Part shown: in pieces, positions 3,780-31,504 of the stretch
How the letters are laid out: every line of letters starts with the position of its first letter
Numbering within the stretch: position 1 is the first letter of the stretch
NCBI GenBank assembly: GCA_965250005.1
Contig: OZ252279.1
Span: forward strand, 1,560,001-1,592,000
Direction of reading: 5' to 3'
Length of the DNA stretch: 32,000 nucleotides
From: Demequinaceae bacterium
Lineage (GTDB): Bacteria; Actinomycetota; Actinomycetes; Actinomycetales; Demequinaceae
Position numbers and translations under genes: made by a program
The notes under the pieces: model-generated
Told to the model about the DNA's origin: nothing
Databases searched by the model: none
What the model saw: the letters and a program-made list of their open reading frames with translations, nothing else

Positions 3780-4799
3780 ATGCACGTATTCAGTGCGCGA
3801 AACGTCATGGGCAGTGTCGTGGCCGTGTTTGGCGGGCTCGCGTGGTTTGCCTTCGAGTTCGACCTCTTCAGTTTCTTCGGCTTGTGGCCGTACATCATCA
3901 TTGGGGTGGGCCTCCTCGCGTTCGTCTCATGGTGGGGGTACGACGCTTACCGAGCCCGCAAACACCAGGTAGCAATGCGGGATTTCGCCCTGATGCACGG
4001 GTGGACCTACCAGAAGCGAAGTTCGGTCTGGGCCCGCAAGATGCGATCTTTTCCGTTTGGCCAGGGCACGCACCGGCGTGATCTTGCGGTATTGAGCGGC
4101 ACCTTTAACAAGATGCCATGTGCGACATTCGTTCACGAGTACGAAACGCGGACGGACGAACGTAAGTCGGCCACGCAAGTGTGGCAGGTCACCGCGATTT
4201 CGCTTCCTTTCCCACTCGCGACCGTTGACATCATTCCCGACGACATGGTTGCGAAGGTGGCCAAGTTGCTCGGCGGTCAAGACATTGACTTTGAGTCCGC
4301 GGAGTTCAACGCAAAGTGGCGAGTCAAGGCCGGAAACTCCAAGTACGCCCATGACATCGTGCACCCGCGAATGATGGAGCGCCTCAACAAGTACGACGCG
4401 CGGGGGCTGGCAATCCGGGTCGAGGGCGACGTCGTCCTCGCGTGGCAGGCGGGGCGTCAGCCGAACGACTCGCTCGCGCGCCGGCTGGGAGTGTTGACCT
4501 CGGTCGCGCGGCTCATACCTGAGTTCGTCTATCGTGAGTTCGCAGCGATTCACGTCCGGGCCGACGAGCGAATCTCCGAGGCGGAGTCAGATGCGCCAGA
4601 GTGGGCCCGCAGCACCACGGCGCTGGTTGACGGCAAGTACAACGCGGAGCTCGCTGATCCCAAGTATGACAAGAAGCTTGAGCCGCGAAACACGGCCGCC
4701 AAGCTGGATAAAGGATCTATGGTGAGCCTATTTCCCGAGGGGTTCTTTACGGGCGGCGTCGACGGCCTTGGCGGCATCGCCTCCGGCTGGGATAACTAG
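3780..4799 (+). CDS. LemA-associated membrane-anchored protein of unknown function, paralog 1 (possibly DUF3137-like)
   Basis: 339 aa, two N-terminal TM helices. Motifs HGWTY, FPFGQG, FNAKWRV, LAWQAG and IPEFVYRE are shared colinearly with ORFs 4968..5726 and 6393..7394. Starts 2 nt after the pyrE stop (an alternative ATG is at 3807). Confidence 0.7.
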   Translation: MHVFSARNVMGSVVAVFGGLAWFAFEFDLFSFFGLWPYIIIGVGLLAFVSWWGYDAYRARKHQVAMRDFALMHGWTYQKRSSVWARKMRSFPFGQGTHRRDLAVLSGTFNKMPCATFVHEYETRTDERKSATQVWQVTAISLPFPLATVDIIPDDMVAKVAKLLGGQDIDFESAEFNAKWRVKAGNSKYAHDIVHPRMMERLNKYDARGLAIRVEGDVVLAWQAGRQPNDSLARRLGVLTSVARLIPEFVYREFAAIHVRADERISEAESDAPEWARSTTALVDGKYNAELADPKYDKKLEPRNTAAKLDKGSMVSLFPEGFFTGGVDGLGGIASGWDN

Positions 4800-13548: not shown

Positions 13549-13564
13549 CGGCAGCTCGCTGACC

Positions 13565-14458
13565 GTGGCCCCGATCTCGCTCCCTGATCCCATCAAAGTT
13601 CCTGGCTGGCGGCACATCTACTCTGGCAAGGTGCGGGACCTATACGAGCCCGTGGAGCCTCACCCACGCGGTGACGTCCTCCTGGTGGTCGCCTCCGACC
13701 GCGTCAGCGCCTACGACTACGTGCTCTCCACCGAGATCCCCGGCAAGGGCGAGGTTCTGACCGCGCTTACGCTTTGGTGGTTTGACCAAATCCGGGACAT
13801 CATCACCGACCACACCGTCGAGGCGCCCGTTCCCCTTGAGGTGGCCGGCCGGGCGATGGTCGTGAAGCGGCTGACCATGTTCCCAGTGGAGTGTGTGGCC
13901 CGCGGATACCTGGCGGGGTCCGGGCTCGCAGAGTATCGCGAGTCGGGCTCCGTCTGCGGGATCACACTGCCAGCGGGGCTTCTCGACGGATCACGTCTCG
14001 AGGTTCCAGTTTTCACGCCAACCACCAAAGCCGAGTTGGGTGACCACGATGAGGCGGTGACCTTCGATGCCGTGGTTCAGACGGTGGGCAAGGCCGACGC
14101 CGTCGAGCTTCGTGAGCTCACCCTTGCCGTGTACGCACGTGCGCACCAGGTTGCCGCGGGGCGCGGCATCATACTCGCGGACACCAAGTTTGAGTTCGGG
14201 CGTGACGACTCCGGCGCGATGGTGCTCGGCGATGAAGCACTCACCCCTGACTCGTCGCGCTTCTGGCCGGCGGACGGATGGGAGCCCGGGCACGCGCAGC
14301 CGTCGTTCGACAAGCAATTCGTTCGCGACTGGCTGGTCTCTCCCGCGGCGGGCTGGGACCGTGCCTCTGGCGAGCCGCCGCCGCCATTGCCCCAGGATGT
14401 CGTGGAGAAGACCCGCGCTCGCTACGTCGAGGCGTATGACCGGCTCACGCAGGGCTGA
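13565..14458 (+). CDS. purC: Phosphoribosylaminoimidazole-succinocarboxamide synthase (SAICAR synthase)
   Basis: ORF 13271..14458, but its first ~98 codons overlap purD in another frame. The first plausible start after the purD stop is GTG 13565 (giving 297 aa). YSGKVRDLY, VASDRVSAYD and ILADTKFEFG motifs. Start is uncertain by a few codons. Confidence 0.9.
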   Translation: MAPISLPDPIKVPGWRHIYSGKVRDLYEPVEPHPRGDVLLVVASDRVSAYDYVLSTEIPGKGEVLTALTLWWFDQIRDIITDHTVEAPVPLEVAGRAMVVKRLTMFPVECVARGYLAGSGLAEYRESGSVCGITLPAGLLDGSRLEVPVFTPTTKAELGDHDEAVTFDAVVQTVGKADAVELRELTLAVYARAHQVAAGRGIILADTKFEFGRDDSGAMVLGDEALTPDSSRFWPADGWEPGHAQPSFDKQFVRDWLVSPAAGWDRASGEPPPPLPQDVVEKTRARYVEAYDRLTQG

Positions 14459-14577
14459 TCTGACAGCATGCGCGGGCGCGCTCTACCAGCGGCACTTGCG
14501 CGCCTCGCCGGCGCTGTGGTTGCGGTTCGACGGCGAGGTTGCTGGAATCTGGCCCGCGTGAGGATTACCGTCAAGGC

Positions 14578-15315
14578 ATGATCACCGTTGGCGTCGACCT
14601 TGCGTCTCAGTCCGCAAATACTGCGCTCGCGGTGGTGGACTGGTCGCTCGCCGCGCCGCGGGCGGTGCGGGTCGAGGTAGGAGTGGACGACGAGCTAATC
14701 GTGGAATCCGCCCGCGAGGCAAACATGGTCGCGATTGCGTCGCCGTTCAGTTGGCCGGACGCGTTCTTCGAGTTCATCAAGGCGCACCGTGAGGGTCAGA
14801 TTGCCGACCCGCGCCAGGTCGCCACATCGAGCGGGCGCGACCACATCATGTACCGACTCACCGAGCGGCGGGTGCGCGAGTTCCTCGGCGTGAAGTTCAT
14901 CCCGGTCACCGCGAACATGCAGGCAGCGACGGCACTGCGCTGCGCCGGACTGCTCGCGCGGCTTCGCGAGGAACGGCACAACGTTGGTCGCGACGGCCTG
15001 GGCAATATCGTCGAGGTACACCCGCCGGCGAGTTTGCAATCGTGGGGTTTGGCCGAGACAGGCTACAAGACGAAGTCCGTGGCCCGCACCAAAATACTCG
15101 AGCAGATCGCGCGACGGGTCCCGCTGGATTTGGGTGAGTTCCGGTCTCTGTGTGCCGACAACGATGACGCGCTCGACGCGCTGGTCGCAGCGCTGACAGG
15201 CAGGGCAGTCGCCATGGGCAACTGGGTCAAACCCGGGACCGAAGAAGAAGTGGAGCACGCCCGCACCGAGGGCTGGATCTGCCTGCCGAGCGGCACTGTC
15301 GAAGTCCTGCGCTAG
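14578..15315 (+). CDS. DUF429-like protein (predicted RNase H-fold) inserted in the pur cluster
   Basis: ORF 14539..15315; ATG 14578 preferred (MITVGVDLAS...). N-terminal GVDLA, EVHPPASL...YK, and DDALDALVAALTG resemble what I recall of DUF429; not searched. Confidence 0.6.
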   Translation: MITVGVDLASQSANTALAVVDWSLAAPRAVRVEVGVDDELIVESAREANMVAIASPFSWPDAFFEFIKAHREGQIADPRQVATSSGRDHIMYRLTERRVREFLGVKFIPVTANMQAATALRCAGLLARLREERHNVGRDGLGNIVEVHPPASLQSWGLAETGYKTKSVARTKILEQIARRVPLDLGEFRSLCADNDDALDALVAALTGRAVAMGNWVKPGTEEEVEHARTEGWICLPSGTVEVLR

Positions 15316-15391
15316 GGCAGCATTCGCACGATCCCGGTGTCCCCGCGTGGGCCATCATTGGCTGCTCCTAGAGCACCGGTACACTTTTCGC

Positions 15392-15643
15392 ATGCCCAAG
15401 ATCGTCGTTCATGTCATGCCCAAGCCCGAGATCCTCGACCCGCAGGGCAAGGCGGTGGGAGCGGCGCTTCCCCGTCTCGGCTTCGACGGCTTCGCTGGAG
15501 CCCGCCAGGGTAAGCGCTTCGAGCTCACGGTGAACGGCGACGTCACCGACGAGGTTCTCGCCCAAGCGCGTGAGGCGGCCCAAACGCTGCTGAGCAACCC
15601 GGTGATCGAGGACGTCATCTCTGTTGAGGTGGAGGCGGAGTGA
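15392..15643 (+). CDS. purS: Phosphoribosylformylglycinamidine synthase subunit PurS
   Basis: ORF 15347..15643. ATG 15392 gives an 83-aa protein, [22 protein letters not shown]..., typical of PurS. TACACT (15380-15385) lies 6 nt upstream. Confidence 0.9.
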
Positions 15644-16347
15644 CCGCCCCTCGCATTGGAGTCGTCACGTTTCCGGGGACTCTAGACGACTTCGACGCGC
15701 TCAGGGCCGTCCGTCTTGCGGGCGCCGAGGGTGTCCCACTGTTTCACAGCGAGCCAGACCTCAAAGACGTGGATGCAGTGGTCCTTCCCGGCGGATTCAG
15801 CTACGGCGACTACCTGCGCGCGGGCGCCATCTCGCGCTTCGCGCCCATCATGGAAATGGTTGTGGACGCCGCCAAAGGCGGCATGCCGGTGCTGGGAATC
15901 TGCAACGGCTTCCAGGTTCTAACTGAGGTGCACCTGCTCCCCGGTTCCATGATCAAGAATGAGCACCTGCACTTCATCTGCCGCGACCAGACGCTCTCCG
16001 TCGAAAACGCGCAGACGGCGTGGACAGGGGACTACTCGCAGGGCGACCGCATTGTCGTCCCGCTGAAGAACCAAGACGGCCAGTACGTCGCGGACGCGAA
16101 GACGCTCGACGCTCTTGAGGCCGAGGGGCGCGTGGTGTTCAAATACCAAGGCTGGAACCCCAACGGGTCGCGCAGCGACATCGCGGGAATCACCAACGAG
16201 CGCGGCAACGTCGTTGGCCTCATGCCTCACCCCGAGCATGCGGTGGAGCCCGGCTTTGGCCCTGATTCGGCCGACGCCGGGCGCGCCGGTACCGATGGGC
16301 TGGGGTTCTTCACCTCGGTGATGGGGTCGCTACTCGCGCGGGCGTAG
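15640..16347 (+). CDS. purQ: Phosphoribosylformylglycinamidine synthase subunit PurQ (glutaminase)
   Basis: 235 aa. GTGA overlap with the purS stop. [10 protein letters not shown], the GICNGFQ nucleophile Cys, and MPHPE. Confidence 0.95.
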
Positions 16348-18641: not shown

Positions 18642-18992
18642 TGGGCTTCGATGCGAGCGAATGCGACGGACGGCGGGGGTTTTGTGCTGCAGGCGGCTCG
18701 GCGTCTTCGCCAGACCGTTGCATCCTTGCGCGGGCGCCGGGCTGAGGTCGTACGACCTCAGCCACGGGTCAGCTGCGTGTATCTCGCCGAGGCGGTCACG
18801 CGCGCCGGTGTTGAGAAGGCGCTCGTACATGACTCAGGAGTGTGAGGTAATGCCGCCGATGAGGCCGAGCGGCAGTGGGCTAGATCGCATGATCTGAGGC
18901 TTTACACGCCGATCCGGGAGCACAGGATTCCGGGTGCTAGCCTTCAGCCATTGGCAGGCGATACCGGCCACCGGTGACGGAGGAGAAAGACC

Positions 18993-19763
18993 ATGGCGCT
19001 CGGAACGCGGGGACTCACAATAGGCGGTCTGGCACTTCTGGTTGCGGGCGGGCTCGGAGGTATGGCGCTCGCGTCCACGGGTGACGGCGATGCGGGCCCC
19101 TTCTTTGCGTGTACCGACGGCACTGTGACGGTACTTCACGTCTACGACGGTTCTGCGCCTGGGTGCGACGACGGCTTTGGACTGGCGGACGTGCTGGTCA
19201 CCGGGCCTGCTGGCGCGATTGGCCCTGACGGCCCCACCGGCGCTACGGGCGCTACGGGTACGAGTGGCAGTACCGGCAACCAGGGGTTGGCTGGCGTTGT
19301 GGGCGCAACTGGCGCCACGGGCTCGGTTGGGGCATTGGGTGCGACTGGACCCCAAGGCGTTCAAGGTACTCAGGGCCCGCAAGGTGGCGACGGCCCGCAG
19401 GGCCCTCAGGGGCCGCAGGGCGACCCCGGCGACGACGGGACCGATCTTGACGGGCTCGCCTGTACGGGCAGCGAACATGTGACTGGCGTTAGCGTGGGGG
19501 CTCTCGTGTGCGCCGCGGCGCCTGACCCGTCGCTGGTTCGTGTCGTCTCGTGGAGTGGAGTCCTGGCCGCTGAAGGCGCAGGCTACTCGAGCACCATCTC
19601 GTGCCCCGCCGGCTATGTCGCGGTCTCGCTTGGTTGGGACGGGGGCGCGGGATTCTCTGGATTGTCTGACTCGTATCCGACGAGCGCCACCACGTGGAGC
19701 TTCACTGTTCCTGATGCGCCGCCCTACGAGCTGTATCTCACGTGCATCAAAGTGACGCACTAA
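18993..19763 (+). CDS. Secreted collagen-like triple-helix repeat protein
   Basis: 256 aa. GGAGGAG SD. Signal peptide MALGTRGLTIGGLALLVAGGLGGMALAST. 27 uninterrupted G-X-Y triplets (aa 71-151). Cys-containing N- and C-terminal globular regions. Confidence 0.8.
   Translation: MALGTRGLTIGGLALLVAGGLGGMALASTGDGDAGPFFACTDGTVTVLHVYDGSAPGCDDGFGLADVLVTGPAGAIGPDGPTGATGATGTSGSTGNQGLAGVVGATGATGSVGALGATGPQGVQGTQGPQGGDGPQGPQGPQGDPGDDGTDLDGLACTGSEHVTGVSVGALVCAAAPDPSLVRVVSWSGVLAAEGAGYSSTISCPAGYVAVSLGWDGGAGFSGLSDSYPTSATTWSFTVPDAPPYELYLTCIKVTH
19203..19445 (+). repeat. Gly-X-Y collagen-like repeat tract (27 triplets)
   Basis: GPAGAIGPDGPTGATGATGTSGSTGNQGLAGVVGATGATGSVGALGATGPQGVQGTQGPQGGDGPQGPQGPQGDPGDDGTD, read directly from the translation. 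Confidence 0.9.
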
Positions 19764-19831
19764 GAGACTGGTAACACGGGCCGGGACCAAGGTTCTAGTC
19801 GGCTCGAAGGTTTGCGGCGTACTGTGAAGCC

Positions 19832-20299
19832 ATGAAGATAGGCGAACTCGCGGACCGCTCCGGCGTCACCGCCAAGACCATCCGCTACTACGAGAGCATC
19901 GGCCTGATGCCCGCTCCCGACAGAACCACGTCCAACTATCGCGACTACGGCGACGATGCCGAGGGCCGCCTGAGGTTCGTGCGCGACTCCCAGGCGGCGG
20001 GCCTGACGCTCGCTGAGGTGGCCAGCATCCTCGAGATGAAGGACGCCGGCGAGTCCACATGCGAACACACGCGTGACCTGGTGCAGCGTCACATCGACGA
20101 GATTGACCAGCAGATCGCGGCATTGCGTGAGAACCGCAAGGTGATGGTGGCGCTAGCCGATGCGGCGGGATCAATGGACCCCGGCACGTGTTCGGACCCG
20201 ACGCGCTGTCAGGTGATCTCGAGCCATCTGCACGCCTCTTCGGAGAGCGCCCACACGCCGGGCGGGCGCCGCCGGCTAGCTGTTCATTCGCACGCGTGA
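19832..20299 (+). CDS. MerR-family heavy-metal-responsive transcriptional regulator
   Basis: 155 aa. N-terminal HTH IGELADRSGVTAKTIRYYESIGL aligns without gaps to E. coli CueR numbering as I recall it. Cys77, Cys120 and Cys126, plus a His-rich tail. TACTGT (19820-19825) lies 6 nt upstream of the ATG. Confidence 0.85.
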   Translation: MKIGELADRSGVTAKTIRYYESIGLMPAPDRTTSNYRDYGDDAEGRLRFVRDSQAAGLTLAEVASILEMKDAGESTCEHTRDLVQRHIDEIDQQIAALRENRKVMVALADAAGSMDPGTCSDPTRCQVISSHLHASSESAHTPGGRRRLAVHSHA

Positions 20300-20319
20300 C
20301 GGGAATGAACGGTGTGGGC

Positions 20320-20351
20320 TTGACCTTCCAGTGGAGTGGAACTTCTACGGT
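20320..20351 (+). promoter_or_regulatory. MerR-type promoter with a long spacer and internal dyad, upstream of copZ-copA
   Basis: -35 TTGACC (20320-20325), 20-nt spacer, -10 TACGGT (20346-20351). The spacer holds the dyad TTCCA-N6-TGGAA (20326-20330 and 20337-20341). The left half, TTGACCTTCC, resembles the E. coli copA promoter as I recall it. Confidence 0.55.
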
Positions 20352-20357
20352 GAGCGT

Positions 20358-20618
20358 ATGAATACATCACAGACACGGGCCGCGGGCCCCGAGGAACTGA
20401 CGCTCGACGTGCTCGGGATGCACTGCAACGGCTGCGCCGGGACGGTGACGGACGCCGCGGCTGGCGTCGACGGCGTTGTGGATGCGCACGTTGACCTGTC
20501 TCAAGAGACGCTCGCCATCACGACGGATGGAACCGTACCCGTGCCCACGCTGCGCGAGGCGATCGCTGCCGCCGTCGGAGCGATAGGCTGCTCAATCGCC
20601 GAGGAAGACTTCTCGTGA
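20358..20618 (+). CDS. copZ: Heavy-metal-associated (HMA) copper chaperone
   Basis: ORF 20331..20618, but GTG 20331 lies inside the predicted promoter. ATG 20358 lies 6 nt after the -10 (leaderless). GMHCNGCAGTV metal-binding motif. GTGA overlap with copA. Confidence 0.8.
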   Translation: MNTSQTRAAGPEELTLDVLGMHCNGCAGTVTDAAAGVDGVVDAHVDLSQETLAITTDGTVPVPTLREAIAAAVGAIGCSIAEEDFS

Positions 20619-23017
20619 CGGCAACCGAAGCGTCCGCGCCCGCCCCGGAGGAACTCCGGATCTCCGTCGGCGGGATGACCTGCGCAGGATGCGCGGCGAC
20701 CCTATCGAACGGCATAGGCCAACTCGACGGCGTCGCATCCGCGGACGTCAACGTTGCGACGCGACGCGCGACCGTCAAATCGGATGGCACCATCGACGCT
20801 GACGACCTCGAGGTGGCGATCGAGGCTGCCATCAACGGGCTCGGCTACTCGGTCGTGAAGAAAGCCGCCCCCGCGGCTGGCCCCGATGGAAACGCGCAGC
20901 ACGGCGAGCACGCAGACCATGGGCACAGCTCGATGGATCAGGGCTCGATGGACCACGGCGACCACGCCGGCATGGACCTCGCCGACGAGCACCTGCGTGC
21001 GGACGCATCTCGGGTGGCGGACTATCGTCGCCGCTTCACCGTCGCCGCAATCCTTGCGGCGCCCCTGCTCGCCATCTCGATGGTGACCGCATGGCAGTTT
21101 GACGGCGGGGAGTGGCTTGCGTTGGCTCTCGCGACCCCCGTGATCTTCTGGAGCGCCTGGCCGTTCCACCGCTCGACCTTCATGACCGCGCGCCACGGCG
21201 CGACAACCATGGATACGCTCGTCACGCTCGGCACTCTCGCGGCGTGGACATGGTCCACGGTCGTGCTCGTGGGCGGCACGCTCGGAATCGGAACCCTCGC
21301 GAACGGTCACGTCTACTACGAGACCGGCGCCGTGATCGTCTCCCTGATTCTGCTTGGCAAGTGGCTCGAAGTCCGTTCGACCGCGAAAGCTGGGGACGCG
21401 ATTCGCGCCCTCAGCAAGATTCAAGCCAACACCGCGCAGCTCGAGGACGGTACAGAGATTCCGCTAGACCAGCTTGAGGTGGGCATGCGGTTTGTGACGC
21501 GCCCCGGAGAGACGATCGCAACTGACGGCTTGGTTGTCGATGGCTCGGCCGCTGTCGACGCGTCCATGGTGACCGGCGAATCCGTGCCCGTTCACGCAGG
21601 TGAGGGAGCAGAGGTGGTCGGAGGAACCATCGCCACAGACGGTGCACTCGTGATCGAGGCGACGCGCGTGGGCAGCGAAACCATGCTCGCCCAAATTGCT
21701 CGGATGGTAGACGACGCGCAGTCAGGCAAGGCCGACGTGCAGCGCCTCGCGGACCGCATCAGCGGCGTGTTCGTACCCGTGGTTATAGGGATGTCGCTCG
21801 CGACGCTAGCCACCTGGCTCTTGGTCACAGGCGATGTGGATGGCGCGTTCACGGCGGCTGTGGCGGTGCTGATCATCAGCTGCCCGTGCGCGCTGGGGCT
21901 CGCGACACCGCTCGCCATCATGGTGGGCACCGGCCGCGGCGCCCAGCTGGGCGTGCTGGTGCGCGGCCCGCAAGTGCTTGAGGACACGCGCCGGATTACC
22001 ACCATCGTGCTCGATAAGACCGGCACCATCACCACCGGAAAAATGACGGCGGGCGAGGTCATTGCGCCGGGGTTCGACGACGGCGCGAAGGCGCTGCTGA
22101 TCTCCGCGGCGGCTTCCGCAGAGAAGCGTTCGGAGCATCCGGTGGGCCAGGCCGTCGCCGCTCTTGTGGACGAGCACCGCGGCATCAAGGACTTCCGCAT
22201 CACGCCGGGTCAGGGCGTCACGGCCACGGTTCAGGGCGCGCCATCTACGATGACGCAGGCCCTCGGTTGCGCCGACGAGGCACCGGCTGACGTGCGCGTC
22301 GGCTCGCGCCGAATGTTCGACCACGTCCCTGACGAGCTTGAGCAGGCTGCTACCGACGCCGAGTGGCGCGGCTTCACAGCCGTGTTCGCAGGCCGTTCGC
22401 CCGTGATGGAGACCAAACCTGGCGCGATCATTTCGATCCGCACCCCCGTGGACGCGGAGGCAGTAATCCTCGTGAGCGACACGGTCAAACCCACGTCGCT
22501 CGAGGCGGCGGATACTTTCCGCGAACTCGGTCTCGACGTGATCCTGCTGACCGGAGACAACGAGCGCGCGGCGCGAGCCGTGGCCAATGAGGTGGGCATC
22601 GACCGCGTGATCGCTGAGGTGCTCCCCAGCGACAAGGCTGAGGTGGTGAAGGGCCTCCAGGAGGAGGGCCAGCGCGTCGCGATGGTGGGCGACGGCGTCA
22701 ACGATGCTCCTGCGCTCGCGCAGGCTGACCTGGGAATCGCGATTGGCACCGGCGCCGACGTTGCACGCGAAGCATCGGACCTGACAGCCGTGAGCGGCGA
22801 CCTGCTGGCGGTGGCGGACGCGATTCGCCTATCGCGGTGCACGCTGAGTGTGATCCGCGGCAACCTATTCTGGGCGTTCGCTTACAACGTCGCGGCCATT
22901 CCGCTCGCGGCGTTCGGGATTCTCAACCCGATGGTCGCATCGGCTGCGATGGGCGGGTCGAGCCTGTTCGTGGTGGGCAACTCTCTGCGGTTGCGAGGTT
23001 TCACGCCGCAACGGTAG
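20615..23017 (+). CDS. copA: Copper(I)-translocating P1B-type ATPase
   Basis: 800 aa. N-terminal HMA GMTCAGCA, TM6 SCPCALG, DKTGTIT, GDGVNDAP. TM7 N-x6-YN-x4-P (NLFWAFAYNVAAIP) and TM8 M-x2-SS-x5-N (MGGSSLFVVGN), the P1B-1 Cu/Ag signature. Confidence 0.95.
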   Translation: MTATEASAPAPEELRISVGGMTCAGCAATLSNGIGQLDGVASADVNVATRRATVKSDGTIDADDLEVAIEAAINGLGYSVVKKAAPAAGPDGNAQHGEHADHGHSSMDQGSMDHGDHAGMDLADEHLRADASRVADYRRRFTVAAILAAPLLAISMVTAWQFDGGEWLALALATPVIFWSAWPFHRSTFMTARHGATTMDTLVTLGTLAAWTWSTVVLVGGTLGIGTLANGHVYYETGAVIVSLILLGKWLEVRSTAKAGDAIRALSKIQANTAQLEDGTEIPLDQLEVGMRFVTRPGETIATDGLVVDGSAAVDASMVTGESVPVHAGEGAEVVGGTIATDGALVIEATRVGSETMLAQIARMVDDAQSGKADVQRLADRISGVFVPVVIGMSLATLATWLLVTGDVDGAFTAAVAVLIISCPCALGLATPLAIMVGTGRGAQLGVLVRGPQVLEDTRRITTIVLDKTGTITTGKMTAGEVIAPGFDDGAKALLISAAASAEKRSEHPVGQAVAALVDEHRGIKDFRITPGQGVTATVQGAPSTMTQALGCADEAPADVRVGSRRMFDHVPDELEQAATDAEWRGFTAVFAGRSPVMETKPGAIISIRTPVDAEAVILVSDTVKPTSLEAADTFRELGLDVILLTGDNERAARAVANEVGIDRVIAEVLPSDKAEVVKGLQEEGQRVAMVGDGVNDAPALAQADLGIAIGTGADVAREASDLTAVSGDLLAVADAIRLSRCTLSVIRGNLFWAFAYNVAAIPLAAFGILNPMVASAAMGGSSLFVVGNSLRLRGFTPQR

Positions 23018-23750: not shown

Positions 23751-24974
23751 TCAGATCGCCGCGAGCGCCTTCGCGAGATCCTCGCGCAGGTCCTCGACGT
23801 CCTCGAGGCCACAGGACAGGCGCACGGTCGCATGCGACATGCCCACGGCGGCCTGGCCCTCGGGACCAAGCTTCGCGTGGGTCGTGGTCGACGGGTGGGT
23901 CGCAATCGACTTGGCGTCGCCAAAGTTGTTGCTCAACTCGAACAGCGTGAGCGCGTCTATGAAGCGGAACGCGATGTCCTTGGCCTCTTGCGAGAGCGGG
24001 TCCACGCCGTCGGGCAGCGCGAGGTCGACGGTCACCACGGTGCCGCCCATCGTCTGCTGCGTTTTGGCAAGTTCATGCTGCGGGTGGGACGGCAGGAACG
24101 GGTACAGAACACGCCCGATGCCCGGCTGGTCCTCGAGCCACTCAGCGATGTCTAGCGCCGACGCGCACTGGGCCCGCGTCCGCACGCCCAGCGTCTCGAG
24201 CCCCTTGAGCATGATCCACGCGTTGAACGGCGAGATAGTCGCGCCCATCTGACGCACCATCGTTTTGACGGGCCCGTTTACGTAGTCGTCAGTGCCGAGG
24301 ATCGCCCCACCCAGCACACGCCCCTGGCCGTCGATGTGCTTGGTCGCCGAGTAGACCACGGCGTCCGCGCCCAGGTCGAGCGGGCGCTGGCCAAGCGGCG
24401 TCGCGAACACGTTGTCGCAGATCACTATCGCGCCGGCCTTGTGCCCGAGAGCCGCAACGGCGGCCACGTCCACCACATCTTGCATGGGGTTGGTCGGGCT
24501 TTCGAAGAACACTGCCTTGGCGGGTGTCGCGAGCGCACGCTCCCAGTCCTCTAGGCGGTGGCCGTCGACTAGGTCGATTTCGATGCCCCACTTCTTGAAG
24601 AACGTGTCATAGACCTTGATCGTGGAGCCGAAGAGCGCGCGCGAAGAAACCAGGCGGTCCCCCTGGCCCAAGATGGACGCGAGGGACACAAACACGGCCG
24701 ACATGCCGGTAGAGGTGGCGAAGCAGGCCTCGGCGCCCTCGATGGCCGTGAGGCGGTCCTGAAAGGCCTCCACGGTCGGGTTGCCGTAGCGCGAGTACAT
24801 GAACACATCGATCTCGTCGGCAAAGGCAGCTTCGGCCTGTGCGGCGTTGTCGTAGACGTACCCCTGAGTGAGGTGGAGTGCCTCGCTCATCTCGTGGTGC
24901 TGAGAGCGCACGATGCCGCCCCGGATCGCTTTGGTGTCGGGGCGGAGGTGGCTCAGGTCGGGCTCGTCGGTCAT
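23751..24974 (-). CDS. metZ: O-succinylhomoserine sulfhydrylase (Cys/Met-metabolism PLP enzyme)
   Basis: 407 aa. YSRYGNPTVEAFQDRLTAIEGAE and the PLP-lysine motif YSATKHIDGQGR, typical of MetZ. TAGACT (complement of 24982-24987) lies 7 nt upstream of the ATG. Confidence 0.85.
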   Translation of the reverse strand: MTDEPDLSHLRPDTKAIRGGIVRSQHHEMSEALHLTQGYVYDNAAQAEAAFADEIDVFMYSRYGNPTVEAFQDRLTAIEGAEACFATSTGMSAVFVSLASILGQGDRLVSSRALFGSTIKVYDTFFKKWGIEIDLVDGHRLEDWERALATPAKAVFFESPTNPMQDVVDVAAVAALGHKAGAIVICDNVFATPLGQRPLDLGADAVVYSATKHIDGQGRVLGGAILGTDDYVNGPVKTMVRQMGATISPFNAWIMLKGLETLGVRTRAQCASALDIAEWLEDQPGIGRVLYPFLPSHPQHELAKTQQTMGGTVVTVDLALPDGVDPLSQEAKDIAFRFIDALTLFELSNNFGDAKSIATHPSTTTHAKLGPEGQAAVGMSHATVRLSCGLEDVEDLREDLAKALAAI

Positions 24975-25025: not shown

Positions 25026-25655
25026 CTACTTGACGAACATCGACGGGACCGTCACGCCGCCGACAATGGTCGCCGCGCCGTAATCGAACTGGATGTCGTA
25101 GTAGGCCTGCTCGTTCGCGCCGACGCCCGCAGGCAGGTTCGCTGCGCCCACCACAAGGAAGTTGCCCGCGAGCGGCGTCGCGGAGTTGCTTGCGCCAAAC
25201 TGGAAGTGCGTGCCAACGGGCACGTAGGCCTCGAAGATCACAAAGACGTCGCCGAGTAGAAACTCCTTGCACTCGTGGTAGCCGCTGCCTGAACGTGAAC
25301 AGAGAATGTGCGAGGCGGGATCCGACGCGTTGCCGAGCATCTCGGCGTAGACGGTCACGTAGACAAAGTCGCCCTGGTTGAAGATCTCTTCGAGCGTGTA
25401 CACGCCAGTGTGCATCGGCGCCGGGGGGTAGGGGTCGGCGTCCGGCGGCGGAGGTGGCGCTTCCGGCGAATTCCTCGCGGAGGGTGCGGTGGATTGGGCG
25501 GGCTCGGTCAGCGACGGGGACGCGCTCTGAGTGGTAGATACCATTGCCTGCGGCGGCGGCCCCGGGGCATCGGTGGAGGACGTACATCCAGCCAGACTCA
25601 GTCCGAGCGCACCAGCGACGAGAAGTCGCGCGACCGTGGTTGCTGGGCTAGCCAT
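25026..25655 (-). CDS. Putative lipoprotein with a Pro/Ser-rich linker, unknown function
   Basis: 209 aa. Signal peptide plus lipobox LAGC (MASPATTVARLLVAGALGLSLAGC), a Pro-rich spacer, and a beta-rich C-terminal domain. TACCGT (complement of 25662-25667) lies 6 nt upstream of the ATG. Confidence 0.7.
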   Translation of the reverse strand: MASPATTVARLLVAGALGLSLAGCTSSTDAPGPPPQAMVSTTQSASPSLTEPAQSTAPSARNSPEAPPPPPDADPYPPAPMHTGVYTLEEIFNQGDFVYVTVYAEMLGNASDPASHILCSRSGSGYHECKEFLLGDVFVIFEAYVPVGTHFQFGASNSATPLAGNFLVVGAANLPAGVGANEQAYYDIQFDYGAATIVGGVTVPSMFVK

Positions 25656-25706: not shown

Positions 25707-26129
25707 CTAGGACTGCCGCCAGGGCAGGCCCGCGGAGCGCCAGCCGGAACCGCCGCGGTGGCCGTCGTCGTCCGTCGCGCCTTCGAAACCGTCGAGCACG
25801 TTGAACGACGGGCTGAGACCAGCGTCCGTCGCGGCAACAGCAGCGCCGATGGAGCGCTGGCCTGAGCGGCACAGGAATATGATCGGCGACTCAGAGCCGG
25901 GCTCGAGACCGTGTTCCTTGAGCTGAGCTGCGAACTGGTGGTTGCGCTCGCCCTCGGGGTAGCTGACCCACTCGATGAAGAGCACGTCGCGGCCAAGCTC
26001 GTCCGTCTCGGGAACGCCGACGAAGCGCCACTCCGCCTCGGTGCGAACGTCGACGAGGATCGCGTGTTCATCGGCTTTCAGCATGTCCCATGCCACCTGG
26101 GGTGTGATGTCGCCCGCGTAGTTGCTCAA
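25707..26129 (-). CDS. Single-domain rhodanese-like sulfurtransferase
   Basis: 140 aa. Active-site loop FLCRSGQRS. The TTG start overlaps the stop of the upstream small gene (TTGA). Confidence 0.85.
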   Translation of the reverse strand: MSNYAGDITPQVAWDMLKADEHAILVDVRTEAEWRFVGVPETDELGRDVLFIEWVSYPEGERNHQFAAQLKEHGLEPGSESPIIFLCRSGQRSIGAAVAATDAGLSPSFNVLDGFEGATDDDGHRGGSGWRSAGLPWRQS

Positions 26130-26377
26130 CTGTTCGCCTTTGCAGCTGCCTCAGCGGATGTCGGTCCGTCGAGCTTGGACTGAAAGTGCGCCTTGTCGTG
26201 GTCGTGGCCGTTCGGGCCGTGGGAATGCTCGCCGTGCGAGTGGCCCTCGCCGTGGCTGTGCCCGTGGCCGCCCTCGCCGTGCCCACCGCAACCGCATGCG
26301 CCGCCACAGCCGCAGCCGCCGGTGGCCTTGCCGATGTCCATCAGGTTCGGACGTTTGCCCGCTGCTGCCTCGTTCAT
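26126..26377 (-). CDS. Small Cys-Gly / His-rich putative metal-binding protein
   Basis: ORF 26126..26404. ATG 26377 is preferred (GGAG, the complement of 26383-26386, 5 nt upstream). The 83-aa product is MNEAAAGKRPNLMDIGKATGGCGCGGACGCGGHGEGGHGHSHGEGHSHGEHSHGPNGHDHDKAHFQSKLDGPTSAEAAAKANS, with 4 Cys and 11 His between residues 22 and 64. Confidence 0.65.
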   Translation of the reverse strand: MNEAAAGKRPNLMDIGKATGGCGCGGACGCGGHGEGGHGHSHGEGHSHGEHSHGPNGHDHDKAHFQSKLDGPTSAEAAAKANS

Positions 26378-26485
26378 GGCTGCTCCATTCGCTCGCGCGG
26401 CCATCCGCCGCGACTGGTGTAAGTCTATGGGAGCGGTCGCGAGCTAATCACGGTGGCCTGTGCGCGCCGGGCCGCCGGGCCTGAG

Positions 26486-28558
26486 TCAGCGGGCGGCTGC
26501 CGCTGCGTCAACAAGGGGCTCGAGCGCGCGGTGACTAGCCATCACGACGAGTCCGACGACCGCCACGACAACGAGTCCGATACCGGCGATGATGCCAATC
26601 GCTGTCAGCGAGTCCACAAAGCTTGCGGATGACAAGTCGAGGCCGTCGTTTTCCCATCGCCGGAGCGGATCCACTGCGGCGACCCCCACGCTCGCCACAG
26701 CTCCGAACCCAACGCCAACCAGTTGCGGGACGACCTGTTTGATGAACGCGCTATAGCGTCGGCTACGGTCGTTCAACCCAAGTGCGCGCTGTGTGGCGTC
26801 CTCGAGCGCGGAGATTCGCGCACTGTTGGCGCCGATAGCAACCGCCACCAGCTGCGCGACGCCCAAGGTTATGATCGTCAGCGTCACGACCCAAGGCACG
26901 TCCATGCGGACCGCATACACGAACTCGCCGAAATCCCAATCGATTGTGGGTTCGACGACTACGGCCCAGAATGTTGGCCGCGCGAAGTTGGTCGCACCGA
27001 AGATTGCTGCCGTGATTACCGCTCCCGCAGAGATGAAAGCTGGCGTCGCGAATTGGCGCGGCCGTGCCTCGATGGCGGCGCCTGCCGAAATCGCGGCCGG
27101 AACTCTCATACGGCTTAGTGCCCTGCCCAACGCGGCGGTTGCGACGCGTGTCGCCTCGAGCAGGAGGAAGTACGCAGGAACGGCCGTGATAGCCGCTCCG
27201 AAGGTTCTAACGTCCGAATCCTGGGCTCCCCAGGCCGACCCAGACGCGAACACCGCGGAGCCGAGCGCAAGCGGGATCGTCAGCCACCATACAGATACTC
27301 GGCGTGAGACTTCCGATTCGGAGATGTCGTTCACGGGCTTGAGCGCCGCGACGGGACCTTCGCGACCCGACCAAAAGGCGGGCACCGCGGCAATGACGAT
27401 TGCCACGCTGATCACGCCCACCACGATTAGGCTCCACAAGGCGGCGGAGGTCCCGATTCCATATGGAGCAATACCACCGGGAGTGGTCGCGTTGCTAATC
27501 GCGACCGTCGCGACGTTGCCGAGTGCCGCGAGCGCGACGCCGCCAACTAAAGCGATGCCCGCGAGAATGAGCGCTTCAAGGCCAGCGAGGGACCGCATGG
27601 TGGAGGCGCTCGCACCCAACGTCCGTGCGGTCGCTACCCACTGGAGGCGCCGCTGCGCCTGCGCCCGCCCCATGGCAAATGCCATGAGGATCACAGCAGC
27701 CAGCATGGCGATGGCAACCATCAATGCGACCCGGGAGGTATGGGAACCGGCTGCTTCGCTGTGCGGGAGGATGCCGTTGTCAACCAGCAATCCGTCGAGC
27801 TCGGGGTTGCCGCCTTCCCAAGAGATGTGAACGAATGCTGTCTGTAGGCCACCTTGTGTGGTCTCCGATTGCGACCAGCGCAAGGTGAAGACGGAAGTCT
27901 CCCCGAACGAGTCCTCCCACGAGAGGACGGCCTGCGGCGCTAGTCCCCATTTGGGCCACGAAGTGACGGTCGCAAGTTCGCCGACGATCGTGACCATCAA
28001 CTCGGTCCCCGGGTTGGCCGTGGTCGTTGCGTGACGGATGTTGTAATCGTCATCAAGGTGTGTTGCCGGCGCCACGAGCGTGATGGTGTCGCCCACCTTC
28101 ACTCCAAGCTCCGCCATCACCGCGCCGTTGAGGTACGTCGTGCCGGGAGTGGGTGCTTCAGAAACGCCGAAGACGTCGAGCCTGTGGTCTCCGCGCGTTG
28201 CAACCACCACCAGTTGCTCTTCCGTTGATGCGATCAGTGGCACTGCGAATCTGGTCGCGACGACCCGGGGGTCGTTGGCGAGCGCCGCGGAGACGAGGAC
28301 GTTGACCTCCTCTCCACTGAGCTGCGTCCCTTCGTAACTGGCAATGGGATCGGCGCTTGGGAGACGCACGTCGATGAACCCGTTTCGCGCGTGTACGAAT
28401 CCCGCGAGCAGGTTGGACTGCTCCAGTGACTTCAGTCCGGTGTTGTGCTGGAATGCCGCCAGCGAAGACGCAGCGACGAACAGCGCGAGCATCGCCGCGG
28501 CCCAACCGACGTAGCGACGGTTGTGCCGGGCGTGCTGCGCCGCGAGTTGCCAAATCAT
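26486..28558 (-). CDS. ABC transporter permease with two FtsX domains and a MacB-like extracytoplasmic domain (paralog B)
   Basis: ORF 26486..28996, but codons upstream of ATG 28558 overlap the preceding gene and are Arg/Gly junk. ATG 28558..28556 overlaps the upstream stop (ATGA). 690 aa. Shares MGRAQAQRRLQWVATARTLGAS and VPAFWSGREGPVAALKP with paralog A. Confidence 0.8.
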   Translation of the reverse strand: MIWQLAAQHARHNRRYVGWAAAMLALFVAASSLAAFQHNTGLKSLEQSNLLAGFVHARNGFIDVRLPSADPIASYEGTQLSGEEVNVLVSAALANDPRVVATRFAVPLIASTEEQLVVVATRGDHRLDVFGVSEAPTPGTTYLNGAVMAELGVKVGDTITLVAPATHLDDDYNIRHATTTANPGTELMVTIVGELATVTSWPKWGLAPQAVLSWEDSFGETSVFTLRWSQSETTQGGLQTAFVHISWEGGNPELDGLLVDNGILPHSEAAGSHTSRVALMVAIAMLAAVILMAFAMGRAQAQRRLQWVATARTLGASASTMRSLAGLEALILAGIALVGGVALAALGNVATVAISNATTPGGIAPYGIGTSAALWSLIVVGVISVAIVIAAVPAFWSGREGPVAALKPVNDISESEVSRRVSVWWLTIPLALGSAVFASGSAWGAQDSDVRTFGAAITAVPAYFLLLEATRVATAALGRALSRMRVPAAISAGAAIEARPRQFATPAFISAGAVITAAIFGATNFARPTFWAVVVEPTIDWDFGEFVYAVRMDVPWVVTLTIITLGVAQLVAVAIGANSARISALEDATQRALGLNDRSRRYSAFIKQVVPQLVGVGFGAVASVGVAAVDPLRRWENDGLDLSSASFVDSLTAIGIIAGIGLVVVAVVGLVVMASHRALEPLVDAAAAAR

Positions 28559-30645
28559 GCGGACACCTTCTGTGCTGCCTCGACGGGTAACGACAGAGAC
28601 GCTCGCCGCGTTGCGAGGAACGCTACGCAGGCCGCTATCGCGAGGGCGTACGCCGCAATAAGCAGCGTTCCAAGCAGCCCTGCGAGGGCACCAGCCGCGA
28701 CGCCAATCAAGCGAGTACGGCCCTGCGAATCCCATCCCACGATTCCGCCCGCAGTGACCAGCACGGTTCCCACTGCGGAGCCGAGGACCGCGCCGACGGC
28801 CTGCGGTACCCACAGTTGAATCCACGATGCGAATTGGTCCTGGCGCTGCGAAAGACCCATTGCCCGAGCCGCTGCGACTTCGCGCCCGGTGGCCGCGCGC
28901 TGGCCGGCGAAGATGGCCATTGCCACCACTTGCATCGCGAGGAACGCGACTAACGCCGCTGGAATCGCAGAGCCCCCGATGATCGATGACCACCAAAGAG
29001 AGATGTCGTCACTCACGTCCGCGCGCACAAACTGAAGGTGAGTCCACAGGTATTCTGACGCCCTGCCCGTCGCTTGCGACGTGGCTTTGGCGCTGGCGAG
29101 GGCCGCTGCCAGCGCCCAGAGCATCGCGAGCGCGACCCCTTGTCGGGGCCGGGCAATCATGCCCCCGCCTGCCGAAAGCAAACCGGGCCGCCGCGACCTC
29201 GACATTCGGCGCCCCAGGGCTGGAATAGCCCGTCGCAATCGTTCGAGCATCAGCGCGACGGTGGCGGCGAGCATCGCAAGCCCTCCGCCAAGAATGAGTT
29301 GATTTGACATCCCCCAGGAGAACCGGCCGCCGATGAGGATGAGGAACGCTCCGCTTGCGAGCACCCACCACATCGACTTCACCGGCACTCGGCTTGGCAG
29401 GTCGCCCTCGGTCGCATCGCGCACAGGCTTGAGGGCGGCGGCGGGCGAGACCCGTGATGCCCAATAGGCAGGGACGCCAGCGACAATGACCGATACGATC
29501 GCCGCGGCAGAGACGAGGATCGCGGCCGACCACCACGGGAACGTAACGAGTGCGGGTCCCGCGGGGTACGGCACCGACGCGCGCGCAATTGCGAGCTGCA
29601 CGGCGGCCACCCCGACGCCGAGCCCCGTGCCAGCAAGCAGCGCCGCCGCCGCAACGAGCCCCCCTTCGATAAGCGTTGCGCTCGCGATCTGTCCTCGCGT
29701 TGCGCCTAGTAATCGTGCGGTCGCGACCCACTTGGTGCGAGCGGCGGCTTGGCTGCGGCCGAAAGCGAATCCCATGATGATCATTGCCGCGAACAATGCG
29801 GCGCCCGCTCCCACCCACAGGGCCGCCGAGTTGGGCAGGGAGAACGGCGACCGGGACATCTCATAGGGACCCCAGGCATTGAGTGGGGCGAGGGCAGAGT
29901 GCTCCGCATTCCATGACACGCGAGCCTCGAGCTCGCCCGACGGACCGTTGGACGCGGGATTCCACACGTAGTGCAAAGCGAGGCCGTTGGGCGTCGTGGC
30001 TTCCGACCAATGGAGCAGCATGGTGGTGCCGTACACATCGAATGGCGCCAAAGTAGATGCGCGAGTGAGCCCGACTGCGGTCACGGTCTTCGATTGAGGG
30101 GACTGACCCTCGTCTCCGTAGACCTGGTTCGCTAGAACTGCGACTTCGGATCCGACGCTGAGCCCCAGACTCTCGGCAACGTCAGCCGCGAGCACCACTT
30201 CTCCCGCCCGCGCTGGAGCCCGGCCTGCGGCGAGGACATCGTCCCACGGAAAGCTGCCGTACACGGCTAGCGCGTCGACCGATTCGAACCTCTCCCACCC
30301 GGGTTGGCTCGGGTCGCCCTGGATGCCGATCGTTCTGTACGCGACTGCGACGGCTTCGGCACCGTCAGCGTTTGCCGCGTCGACGAGCACCCGGAGGTCG
30401 CGGATTTCCATAGAGTGCTCGGTTCGCTGTAGCGAGACAGGTACTTGCGCGTCCGCAATGAGCCACGCGGAGTAGGCTCTGTCGTTTGCCTCGGCGCGAT
30501 CGAGATCCAGTCTGATGGAGGCGCGCGTCGCCCCCACAGTGAGAACGAATGCGAGCAAAGCGAGAAGCAGCGTCATCGTGAACGCGGTCCACCGCGTGAA
30601 TACAGAGTTTGCGCGCAGTTGTTCCAGAGCGAGGGTCCAGGTCAT
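28555..30645 (-). CDS. ABC transporter permease with two FtsX domains and a MacB-like extracytoplasmic domain (paralog A)
   Basis: 696 aa. TM1, then a ~250-aa extracytoplasmic region (VVLAADVAESLGLSVGSEVAVL), then FGRSQAAARTKWVATARLLGAT and VPAYWASRVSPAAALKP, then a second FtsX-like TM bundle at the C-terminus. Confidence 0.8.
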   Translation of the reverse strand: MTWTLALEQLRANSVFTRWTAFTMTLLLALLAFVLTVGATRASIRLDLDRAEANDRAYSAWLIADAQVPVSLQRTEHSMEIRDLRVLVDAANADGAEAVAVAYRTIGIQGDPSQPGWERFESVDALAVYGSFPWDDVLAAGRAPARAGEVVLAADVAESLGLSVGSEVAVLANQVYGDEGQSPQSKTVTAVGLTRASTLAPFDVYGTTMLLHWSEATTPNGLALHYVWNPASNGPSGELEARVSWNAEHSALAPLNAWGPYEMSRSPFSLPNSAALWVGAGAALFAAMIIMGFAFGRSQAAARTKWVATARLLGATRGQIASATLIEGGLVAAAALLAGTGLGVGVAAVQLAIARASVPYPAGPALVTFPWWSAAILVSAAAIVSVIVAGVPAYWASRVSPAAALKPVRDATEGDLPSRVPVKSMWWVLASGAFLILIGGRFSWGMSNQLILGGGLAMLAATVALMLERLRRAIPALGRRMSRSRRPGLLSAGGGMIARPRQGVALAMLWALAAALASAKATSQATGRASEYLWTHLQFVRADVSDDISLWWSSIIGGSAIPAALVAFLAMQVVAMAIFAGQRAATGREVAAARAMGLSQRQDQFASWIQLWVPQAVGAVLGSAVGTVLVTAGGIVGWDSQGRTRLIGVAAGALAGLLGTLLIAAYALAIAACVAFLATRRASLSLPVEAAQKVSA

Positions 30646-30727: not shown

Positions 30728-31504
30728 TCATCGCTCGACCCCCGCTAGCGCGTCGAGCCCGGCAAGCACCGACGCAGGCGTTGGGTTGTCTATGTGCCCG
30801 GCTATGCGCCCGTCGGCCAGCAGCAAGACGTTCCCTGCGTACGACGCCGCGGTGGGGTCGTGCGTCACCATAACAACCGATTGTCCAAGCTCCCTGCATG
30901 CCTGCCGCAAGTGCGACAGAATCTCGGCGCTGGCGTGGGTGTCTAGGTTCCCTGTGGGTTCGTCGGCAAACACGACGTGCGGGCGTGTGATGAGTGCCCT
31001 TGCGATCGCGACGCGTTGCTGCTGGCCGCCGGACATTTCGTAGGGCTTGCGGGAGAGCTCCTTGCCGATGCCGAGCAGCGCGACAAGCTCGTCCAGCCAG
31101 GCCTCGTCCGCGTCTAGTCCGTTGAGCCTGCGTGGCAGCACGATGTTGTCGTGGGCAGACATGGTCTGGAGAAGGTTGAAGCCCTGGAATACGAAGCCGA
31201 TTGCGGTGCCATGTACCTTCGCTGCCTCCTTGTCCTTGAGCGCACTCAGGTGCGCGTCGCGGATCCACACGTCGCCCGAGTCGGCGTTGTCGAGCCCCGC
31301 AAGCAGGTGAACGAGCGTCGTCTTGCCGGACCCTGACGGGCCCATGACCGCGGTGAGTGTCCCCACGGTGACGTCGATGTCGACGTGATCCACTGCGGTG
31401 ACCGCGGCATCGCCGGATCCGTAGGTTTTGGTCAGACCGCGGGCCTTGACTGCGGGGTTCTTGGGCGACTTCTTCGCCTTTGGGTTGGATTTCTTTCTTT
31501 CCAT
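30728..31504 (-). CDS. ABC transporter ATP-binding protein (MacB/LolD-like)
   Basis: 258 aa. Walker A GPSGSGKTT, signature MSGGQQQRVAIARAL, Walker B VVFADEPT, H-loop VTHD. Lys-rich N-terminal extension MERKKSNPKAKKSPKNPAVKA. TAGCGT (complement of 31512-31517) lies 7 nt upstream of the ATG. Confidence 0.9.
   Translation of the reverse strand: MERKKSNPKAKKSPKNPAVKARGLTKTYGSGDAAVTAVDHVDIDVTVGTLTAVMGPSGSGKTTLVHLLAGLDNADSGDVWIRDAHLSALKDKEAAKVHGTAIGFVFQGFNLLQTMSAHDNIVLPRRLNGLDADEAWLDELVALLGIGKELSRKPYEMSGGQQQRVAIARALITRPHVVFADEPTGNLDTHASAEILSHLRQACRELGQSVVMVTHDPTAASYAGNVLLLADGRIAGHIDNPTPASVLAGLDALAGVER

Follow-up and report, generated by a model that had tools for sequence, protein, structure and literature searches.

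A Cys-, Gly-, and His-rich small protein encoded directly upstream of an Rv0390-type rhodanese in Demequina-related actinobacteria

Single-domain rhodaneses of the Rv0390 type are widespread beside metZ in actinobacteria, including Mycobacterium tuberculosis, and to our knowledge neither their physiological sulfur donor nor their acceptor is known. We describe here a small gene that lies directly upstream of, and overlaps, the gene for such a rhodanese in a 32,000-nucleotide (nt) stretch of DNA from a Demequinaceae bacterium (assembly GCA_965250005.1, contig OZ252279.1, positions 1,560,001 to 1,592,000), which is called the window below and is numbered from its first nucleotide. Comparison with homologues indicates that this small open reading frame (ORF) is a genuine protein-coding gene and that its product is in no described family. 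Judged from sequence and gene order, the small protein most likely serves as the thiol or metal-binding helper of the rhodanese.

In the GlpE–thioredoxin couple, a single-Cys rhodanese discharges its persulfide to a thiol or dithiol partner, and we propose the same need here. CxC clusters and tails rich in His are well known as metal ligands, as in metallothioneins, the N-terminal CxxCGC site of HypB, Hpn, SlyD, and the tails of GroEL1; the CGC or CxC motifs and His-rich runs of HypB and metallothioneins bind Ni, Zn, or Cu. The linkage of rhodanese genes with metZ, which encodes O-succinylhomoserine sulfhydrylase (OSHase), has been published, with large clusters of OSHase-associated rhodaneses, including 2FSX, in a sequence network, and it was proposed that these rhodaneses make H2S for OSHase from thiosulfate, given a reductant (PMC10925157). 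In SoxY, a GGCGG cysteine arm carries sulfur intermediates into the active sites of enzymes (PMC6067878, PMC5336275). Finally, the mycobacterial small ORFs (sORFs) Ms5788A and Rv0815A have about 30 codons and little conservation besides that of Cys; their Cys codons follow one another at the 3′ end and pair with the Shine–Dalgarno sequence further down (bioRxiv 10.1101/834739).

The small gene and its product

The small gene, the overlapping rhodanese gene, and the signals in front of them are the following.

26126..26377, minus strand: small protein gene, 83 amino acids plus stop, a Cys/Gly/His-rich family without description (homologues, dN/dS)
25707..26129, minus strand: Rv0390/2FSX-type single-domain rhodanese, 140 amino acids, TTG start (Pfam PF00581, PDB 2FSX)
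26383..26386, minus strand: Shine–Dalgarno GGAG, 6 nt 5′ of ATG 26377
26395..26414, minus strand: GC-rich hairpin of the 5′ untranslated region (5′-UTR), 6–7-bp stem and 5-nt loop, containing the alternative ATG 26404
26422..26427, minus strand: −10-like promoter hexamer TAGACT, about 44 nt 5′ of the small ORF start

The ORF reads from ATG 26377 to TGA 26126, and its product is MNEAAAGKRPNLMDIGKATGGCGCGGACGCGGHGEGGHGHSHGEGHSHGEHSHGPNGHDHDKAHFQSKLDGPTSAEAAAKANS, the Cys/His part of which falls within GGCGCGGACGCGGHGEGGHGHSHGEGHSHGEHSHGPNGHDHDKAH. An earlier note on the window, made from the sequence alone, had suggested that the product of this ORF may be a dedicated metal-binding (Cu/Ni/Zn) or persulfide-relay partner of the rhodanese, and had also allowed that the ORF might be a spurious one in repetitive GC-rich DNA. 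A word-indexed search of 5.8 billion proteins gave the homologues P0001 and P0002, and an exhaustive hidden Markov model (HMM) search of 1.8 billion cluster representatives gave five hits, with P0004, P0005, and P0006 as new members and nothing further credible. When the Cys/His core alone was used for a word-indexed search, P0001 and P0002 came back and nothing else, neither a HypB-like protein nor any other annotated protein with the motif. A scan of the DNA 5′ of 80 orthologous rhodanese loci added one more small ORF, uncalled, at locus L017, and a metagenome scan with a three-sequence alignment added one extra locus with an uncalled ORF, L092. The loci with the small protein are, then, eight (the window, L001, L003, L017, L086, L087, L089/L090, and L092), and the family has a size of about 8 sequence clusters.

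The ratio of nonsynonymous to synonymous substitution rates (dN/dS) is 0.21–0.32 for the three closest pairs of small proteins, with dS near 0.8–1.2, and the third positions of the Gly and Cys codons vary between loci. This low ratio, together with the synonymous variation, argues that selection acts on the encoded residues and not on the DNA. The GC content by codon position is 0.69/0.56/0.79, which fits the frame and matches the neighbouring genes. The suspicion that the ORF is spurious could draw on the several overlapping ORFs in other frames and on the public record of the window's genome, where the rhodanese and metZ are called and the small ORF is not; the IMG copy of P0001 carries the label 'hypothetical protein'. 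However, homologues in seven further loci make this a protein conserved at eight, with dN/dS well below 1, a frame-consistent GC content at third positions, and a conserved Shine–Dalgarno sequence and promoter. The spurious-ORF explanation is effectively refuted by this conservation and retains next to no probability.

We take ATG 26377 as the correct start because the homologues share the N-terminal length and the GGAG-N6-ATG arrangement. The good Shine–Dalgarno that had been read for this codon is present, 6 nt upstream, and the form (A/G)GGAG-N6-ATG is common to L001, L086, L087, and L092. A second in-frame ATG at 26404 would give a protein of 92 amino acids, and was rejected as the start since it lies inside the 5′-UTR hairpin, about 11 nt from the predicted transcription start. 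The folding energy of the small-ORF leader (RNAfold) is −15.3 kcal/mol. Comparable 5′-UTR hairpins, with a different sequence each time, are found at six of the eight loci (the window, L001, L086, L087, L089, and L092). Such a hairpin just after the predicted transcription start could stabilise the mRNA or be a binding site for a regulator.

The hexamer TAGACT (TAAACT in L001) precedes the small ORF at all eight loci, at a distance of 34–57 nt from the ATG in seven of them. At L003, it is found 6 nt before the small ORF ATG (about 754–768), a leaderless-like arrangement. At L009 (Demequina sp. NBRC 110056), a locus without the small ORF, TAGACT, a gap of 6–7 nt, and ATG stand at the rhodanese itself (~2981–3003). 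These short distances suggest that the L009 rhodanese and L003 small ORF transcripts are leaderless. Given a TAGACT-like box 5′ of the small ORF in eight of eight loci, the pair seems to own its promoter, which is proposed at the level of the consensus; a generic sigma-70 and terminator scan gave nothing useful. As first cistron, the small ORF seems to open an operon close to the promoter, which continues with the Rv0390-type rhodanese and metZ and, in the window, has a lipoprotein gene before metZ.

The features of the encoded protein are given by the coordinates of their codons.

26327..26353, minus strand: N-terminal motif R9-P-N-L-M-D-I-G-K17, with R, N, and L invariant (alignments)
26276..26320, minus strand: Gly-flanked cysteine core G20-G-C-G-C-G-G-A-C-G-C-G-G-H-G34 (alignments)
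26186..26281, minus strand: His-rich tract H33..H64, 11 His, of lineage-specific length
26135..26194, minus strand: predicted C-terminal helix, residues 62–81 (DSSP on the AlphaFold2 model, low to moderate confidence)

The window protein has 4 Cys and 11 His within 45 residues; these counts had been given correctly before, although the span had been put at 43. M1, R9, N11, L12, several Gly, C28, C30, G31, and H33 are invariant across the family, C22 and C24 are present in most members, and the core pattern can be written R-x-N-L-[ML]-x-[IL]-... G-C-G-C-G-G-x-C-x-C-G-[GS]-H. The His tract is longest in the window protein, shorter in P0001, P0002, P0004, and L092, and absent from P0005, P0006, and L017, which keep 3–4 Cys and 1–3 His. 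Missing in three of the eight members, it is not the defining feature for which it had been taken, and we regard it as a lineage-specific elaboration outside the conserved mechanism, through which metal (Zn, Ni, or Cu) is probably bound in addition.

The members have 53–83 codons, with the Cys codons at a variable distance of about 30–55 codons from the stop, and their C-terminal half is poorly conserved. There is no hydrophobic segment, and the protein is mildly acidic (pI 5.1–6.6). The AlphaFold2 model from a six-sequence alignment has a predicted local distance difference test score (pLDDT) of 57.7 and a predicted template modelling score (pTM) of 0.21, and its sole structure is the C-terminal helix, the region of which also carries the Shine–Dalgarno sequence of the rhodanese gene. 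Thus, the small protein is predicted to be largely disordered. Pfam-A and NCBIfam gave zero families at E ≤ 1, and the best match of a PDB profile search, with E 0.84, is noise. These searches and the exhaustive HMM search agree with the earlier remark that the protein was not recognisable as a described family.

Linkage to the rhodanese and to methionine sulfur supply

The gene that immediately follows the small ORF is, at all eight loci, that of the same 140-residue rhodanese, and the two overlap by 4 nt (TTGA, ATGA, or GTGA), an overlap that is partly automatic, as a rhodanese start of the form NTG-AGC or NTG-ACC (Met-Ser or Met-Thr) always has TGA in the −1 frame. The idea of a dedicated rhodanese companion is borne out by this arrangement. 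In the window, the sequence reads as had been described, with the TGA stop of the small ORF (26128–26126) overlapping the TTG start of the rhodanese ORF (26129–26127) in a shared TTGA (26126–26129). The rhodanese start codon (TTG, GTG, or ATG) does not discriminate between coupled and uncoupled orthologues. The adjacency of the two genes is invariant across the eight loci, whereas every other neighbouring gene varies.

Wherever there is a small ORF there is the rhodanese (8/8), but just one of the 80 orthologous rhodanese loci from GTDB, which span Demequina, Cellulomonas, Rhodococcus, Nocardia, Mycobacterium, and others, has the small ORF (L017). A neighbour-joining tree of the rhodaneses places the eight small-ORF loci together in one clade, inside which there are also cultured Demequina species without the ORF. 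From this distribution, the family is evidently confined to a Demequina-related actinobacterial clade, patchy inside it, and dispensable for the rhodanese as such.

The rhodanese scores 30.8 bits with PF00581, for which the cut-off is 22.2, and matches PDB 2FSX (M. tuberculosis Rv0390) with E = 1.1e-51 over residues 3–139. Its only Cys is Cys87 (codon 25869–25871), in the active-site loop CRSGQR. The sequence C87-R-S-G-Q-R is invariant in the rhodanese alignment and aligns with CRSGNR of 2FSX.

The genes and riboswitches that connect the rhodanese and its orthologues with methionine metabolism are the following.

23751..24974, minus strand: metZ, O-succinylhomoserine sulfhydrylase (NCBIfam NF005870 and TIGR01325)
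25026..25655, minus strand: predicted lipoprotein ORF with signal peptide, LAGC lipobox, and Pro-rich linker, without a Pfam family
L029 2832–2946, plus strand: SAM-IV riboswitch (Rfam)
L043 2867–2983, plus strand: SAM-IV riboswitch (Rfam)
L014 2832–2944, plus strand: SAM-IV riboswitch (Rfam)
L035 2837–2953, plus strand: SAM-IV riboswitch (Rfam)
L042 operon (L062 is similar): SAM-I riboswitch 2621–2721, DUF1737 ORF 2726–3004, rhodanese 3001–3420, metZ about 3500–4700

The linkage of rhodanese and metZ, which the earlier note had mentioned for other actinobacteria, is published (PMC10925157), and metZ is found downstream of the rhodanese at four of the eight small-ORF loci, the window, L087, L089/L090, and L092. 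The association is also present at L042. metZ follows the rhodanese directly in L087, L089/L090, and L092; the lipoprotein ORF stands between the two genes in the window only and is absent there in L087, L089, and L092. A lipoprotein homologue with 56% identity at L003 (2459–2851) is near the rhodanese, but not adjacent to it.

Riboswitches for S-adenosylmethionine (SAM) are found in front of orthologous rhodaneses. In Nocardia, Aldersonia, and Skermania, the sequence immediately 5′ of the rhodanese gene matches the Rfam SAM-IV family with 100–110 bits; in Pengzhenrongella and Cellulomonas, it is a SAM-I riboswitch that comes before an operon in which a DUF1737 small ORF is followed by the rhodanese and metZ. 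The rhodanese therefore belongs to the methionine/SAM regulon. The window and the other small-ORF loci have no match to a riboswitch or other RNA family in Rfam, and the idea that the small-ORF region is a known riboswitch in hiding was rejected on this ground. The DUF1737 ORF of Cellulomonas and Pengzhenrongella, about 92 amino acids long, has the same position as the small ORF, with a 4-nt overlap with the orthologous rhodanese and metZ thereafter. However, its sequence is unrelated (PF08410, E = 4.5e-21), with one Cys and a folded domain, and it has a SAM-I riboswitch 5′. By sequence comparison, it is a position-equivalent, non-homologous small partner.

Possible functions of the small protein

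What would a rhodanese of this type need from a small thiol-rich protein? With the catalytic Cys87 as its sole Cys, it depends on a thiol acceptor from outside. We suggest, at somewhat less than an even chance, that the small protein acts as a flexible arm of thiols, to which the rhodanese passes its persulfide sulfur or by which the persulfide is reduced. The single-Cys rhodanese would take sulfane sulfur, for example from thiosulfate, as the Cys87 persulfide, and the flexible poly-thiol arm of the small protein would then enter the active site. There, the arm would either take the sulfur over as its own persulfide or polysulfide, or reduce the persulfide with formation of a CxC disulfide. 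Either route would give sulfide or protein-bound sulfur for MetZ and thus for homocysteine synthesis, and the coupled translation would provide both proteins in fixed proportion. In favour of the thiol arm, the conserved set of residues consists of the Gly-flanked cysteines and one His, and not of the His tract; the chain is predicted to be disordered, and SoxY offers a precedent.

Gly-flanked Cys on a flexible peptide are common to SoxY (GGCGG) and the small protein (GGCGCGG or CGCGG, with the exact GGCGG in P0005 and GGGCGGGG in L017). However, SoxY is a folded, periplasmic, Ig-like protein of sulfur oxidation that pairs with SoxZ and has a single Cys at its extreme C-terminus, whereas the small protein is cytoplasmic and predicted to be disordered, has 3–4 Cys in mid-chain, and shows no sequence homology to SoxY. 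With no Pfam SoxY match, an internal motif, and no sox genes nearby, the relation to SoxY is one of functional analogy only. Similarly, the small protein differs from thioredoxin, the partner of GlpE, in that it has no thioredoxin fold and no CxxC, and presents CxC on a predicted-disordered peptide.

Several observations weigh against the thiol arm. The small ORF is absent from 79 of the 80 GTDB loci, including Demequina species within the same clade, and since most orthologous rhodaneses are without it, the rhodanese works without the small protein. Half of the small-ORF loci have no metZ nearby, and in L001, L003, L017, and L086 there are unrelated convergent genes. The case for a partnership of the small protein with the rhodanese comes from gene linkage. 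CxC clusters are typical of metallothioneins too. Furthermore, the His-rich tract in five members and the similar GCGCGGHGEGHGH... tail of a PurS protein (P0003) point to generic metal binding and not to sulfur chemistry.

The small protein could thus be a metal binder, metallothionein- or metallochaperone-like, which would hold Zn(II), Ni(II), or Cu(I) by its CxC pairs and histidines, and we regard this as a serious but rather doubtful alternative. It would either buffer metal or shield the thiol and persulfide of the rhodanese from thiophilic metals, being co-expressed with the enzyme without exchange of sulfur. The content of Cys and His in the window protein and the His tracts of P0001, P0002, P0004, and L092 agree with a metal binder, as does the tail of similar composition on PurS, which stands in a non-sulfur context. 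This metagenomic PurS (L005 3044–3445) has a C-terminal tail GQGCGCGGHGEGHGHNHGDHSHGDHKHGDGHGHDHGEHPLAKF... that resembles the small-protein core and His tract. The resemblance has E = 1.4e-3 by HMMER, is not significant by BLASTP, and was kept as a compositional lead. The PurS of the window itself (15347–15643, plus strand) has no Cys/His tail.

On the other hand, the three members without a His tract have few ligands for a metallothionein, and no homology to metallothionein, HypB, or a solved structure is detectable with Pfam, NCBIfam, or PDB. The likeness to HypB and to metallothioneins such as MymT and SmtA, with CGC or CxC motifs followed by His-rich runs, is one of composition; the resemblance to HypB that had been pointed out is of this kind, with no detectable homology. 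The small protein has no GTPase domain, and its Cys motif starts at residue 22 and not at the extreme N-terminus as in HypB. A comparison with metallothioneins gave no sequence match (Pfam, PDB profile), at only 3–4 Cys per member. Furthermore, the partner is a rhodanese, with strict linkage (8/8), and not a hydrogenase, urease, or metal-resistance gene. There are no metal transporters or regulators at the other loci, and cop genes are near in the window only.

19832–23017, plus strand: copper-type resistance (cop) unit, composed of
19832–20299, MerR-family regulator
20331–20618, HMA-domain CopZ-like protein
20615–23017, P1B-type ATPase (CopA)

The P1B-type ATPase has a His-rich N-terminal linker. 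The earlier note had counted the cop operon as part of a sulfur/metal context, and this was rejected, as the operon, on the opposite strand and convergent with metZ, has no counterpart at the other small-ORF loci.

A further explanation is that the small ORF acts in cis as a leader peptide, a cysteine-sensing attenuator of the rhodanese (and metZ) on the model of the mycobacterial polycysteine leaderless sORFs. Scarcity of Cys-tRNA would hold ribosomes up at the four clustered Cys codons, and the pause would alter the mRNA structure or the coupling. In favour of a leader, 3–4 Cys codons stand close together in the small ORF, its translation is coupled to that of the rhodanese, and no other ORF comes between it and the promoter, a place that SAM riboswitches take in relatives. 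Furthermore, it looks leaderless in L003 and is poorly conserved in its C-terminal half. It also has a published precedent 5′ of another rhodanese operon, cysA2, in Ms5788A/Rv0815A (10.1101/834739); these, too, are small and unannotated, are rich in Cys codons, and open an actinobacterial operon with a rhodanese gene.

However, the Cys codons of the small ORF alternate with those of conserved Gly (CGCGGxCGC), so that no two are consecutive, while the non-Cys R9, N11, L12, Gly residues, and H33 are invariant over synonymous variation, a conservation outside Cys of which the mycobacterial sORFs have little. A polycysteine attenuator has at least two consecutive Cys codons in an ORF of about 30 codons or fewer; the small ORF has neither feature, being long for a leader at 53–83 codons, with no fixed spacing between the Cys codons and the stop. 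Minimum free energy (MFE) folds at seven loci gave no consistent pairing of the Cys-codon region with the rhodanese Shine–Dalgarno sequence, the partners of which differ; it pairs with the Cys/Gly-coding region in 2–3 loci. Furthermore, expansions of a His tract would make no sense for an attenuator. We consider the leader peptide improbable. A small ORF with a dual role, as protein and as leader, is possible.

The Gly/Cys-rich core after the conserved and 'leader-like' N-terminal motif RPNLMxIGK also recalls the precursor of a ribosomally synthesized and post-translationally modified peptide (RiPP), for instance, a metallophore containing thiazole or thioamide. In contrast to what a RiPP would call for, genes for a cyclodehydratase, radical-SAM enzyme, protease, or exporter are not conserved beside the small ORF, the rhodanese being the only conserved neighbour. 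The core lies in mid-protein with a variable C-terminal tail, and no NCBIfam RiPP model matches. A RiPP precursor is accordingly very improbable.

Other neighbouring genes and biological meaning

Upstream of the small ORF, the neighbours are FtsX permeases in the window, L001, and L017, a Sm_multidrug_ex protein with PurL further upstream in L086, and unknown genes elsewhere. In the window, these upstream genes are on the same strand as the small ORF.

26486–28996, minus strand: FtsX-type permease
28555–30645, minus strand: FtsX-type permease
30728–31504, minus strand: ABC ATPase

The 836-residue FtsX ORF as listed reaches about 440 nt into the preceding gene, so that translation probably begins further inside, near 28550. 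The order of FtsX followed by rhodanese is also found in L001, L017, and Demequina loci without the small ORF.

On the far side of the cop unit, the window has an ORF at 18993–19763 (plus strand) whose N-terminus is signal-like and which contains a long Gly-X-Y repeat of collagen type (GPTGATGATGTSGSTGNQGLAGVVGATG...GPQGPQGPQGDPGDDG), overlapped by an ORF of the opposite strand (18834–19790) without a family. purC, purS, and purQ are at 13271–16347, about 10 kb from the window rhodanese; PurL is near the small ORF in L086. In mycobacteria (L044, L046, L064, and L085), the ORF that ends at the rhodanese start (upstream of position 3001) is presumably the C-terminus of PurT, and we take the gene order in M. 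tuberculosis to be purT(Rv0389)-Rv0390.

The small protein family is new and appears akin to known thiol-rich accessory or carrier peptides, with a function that we infer from sequence. Gene callers and family databases have missed this conserved family of microproteins. If its members bind metal instead, they would represent a new minimal module for metal binding by CxC and His, with a link to sulfur metabolism. It is also conceivable, though unlikely, that the small protein founds a new class of cytoplasmic sulfur carrier, a disordered 'poly-GCG' swinging arm that would be loaded by the rhodanese and would hand sulfane sulfur directly to MetZ. The thiocarboxylate carriers CysO and HcyS are a precedent for such a carrier, but the carrier chemistry and the architecture would be completely different here. 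If this were true, homocysteine synthesis in these actinobacteria would run on protein-bound persulfide and not on free sulfide. As the family is small and belongs to one clade, its general impact is moderate. Within that clade, a co-translated thiol-rich partner may provide a handle on how single-Cys rhodaneses discharge their sulfane sulfur and how it is delivered to homocysteine synthesis.

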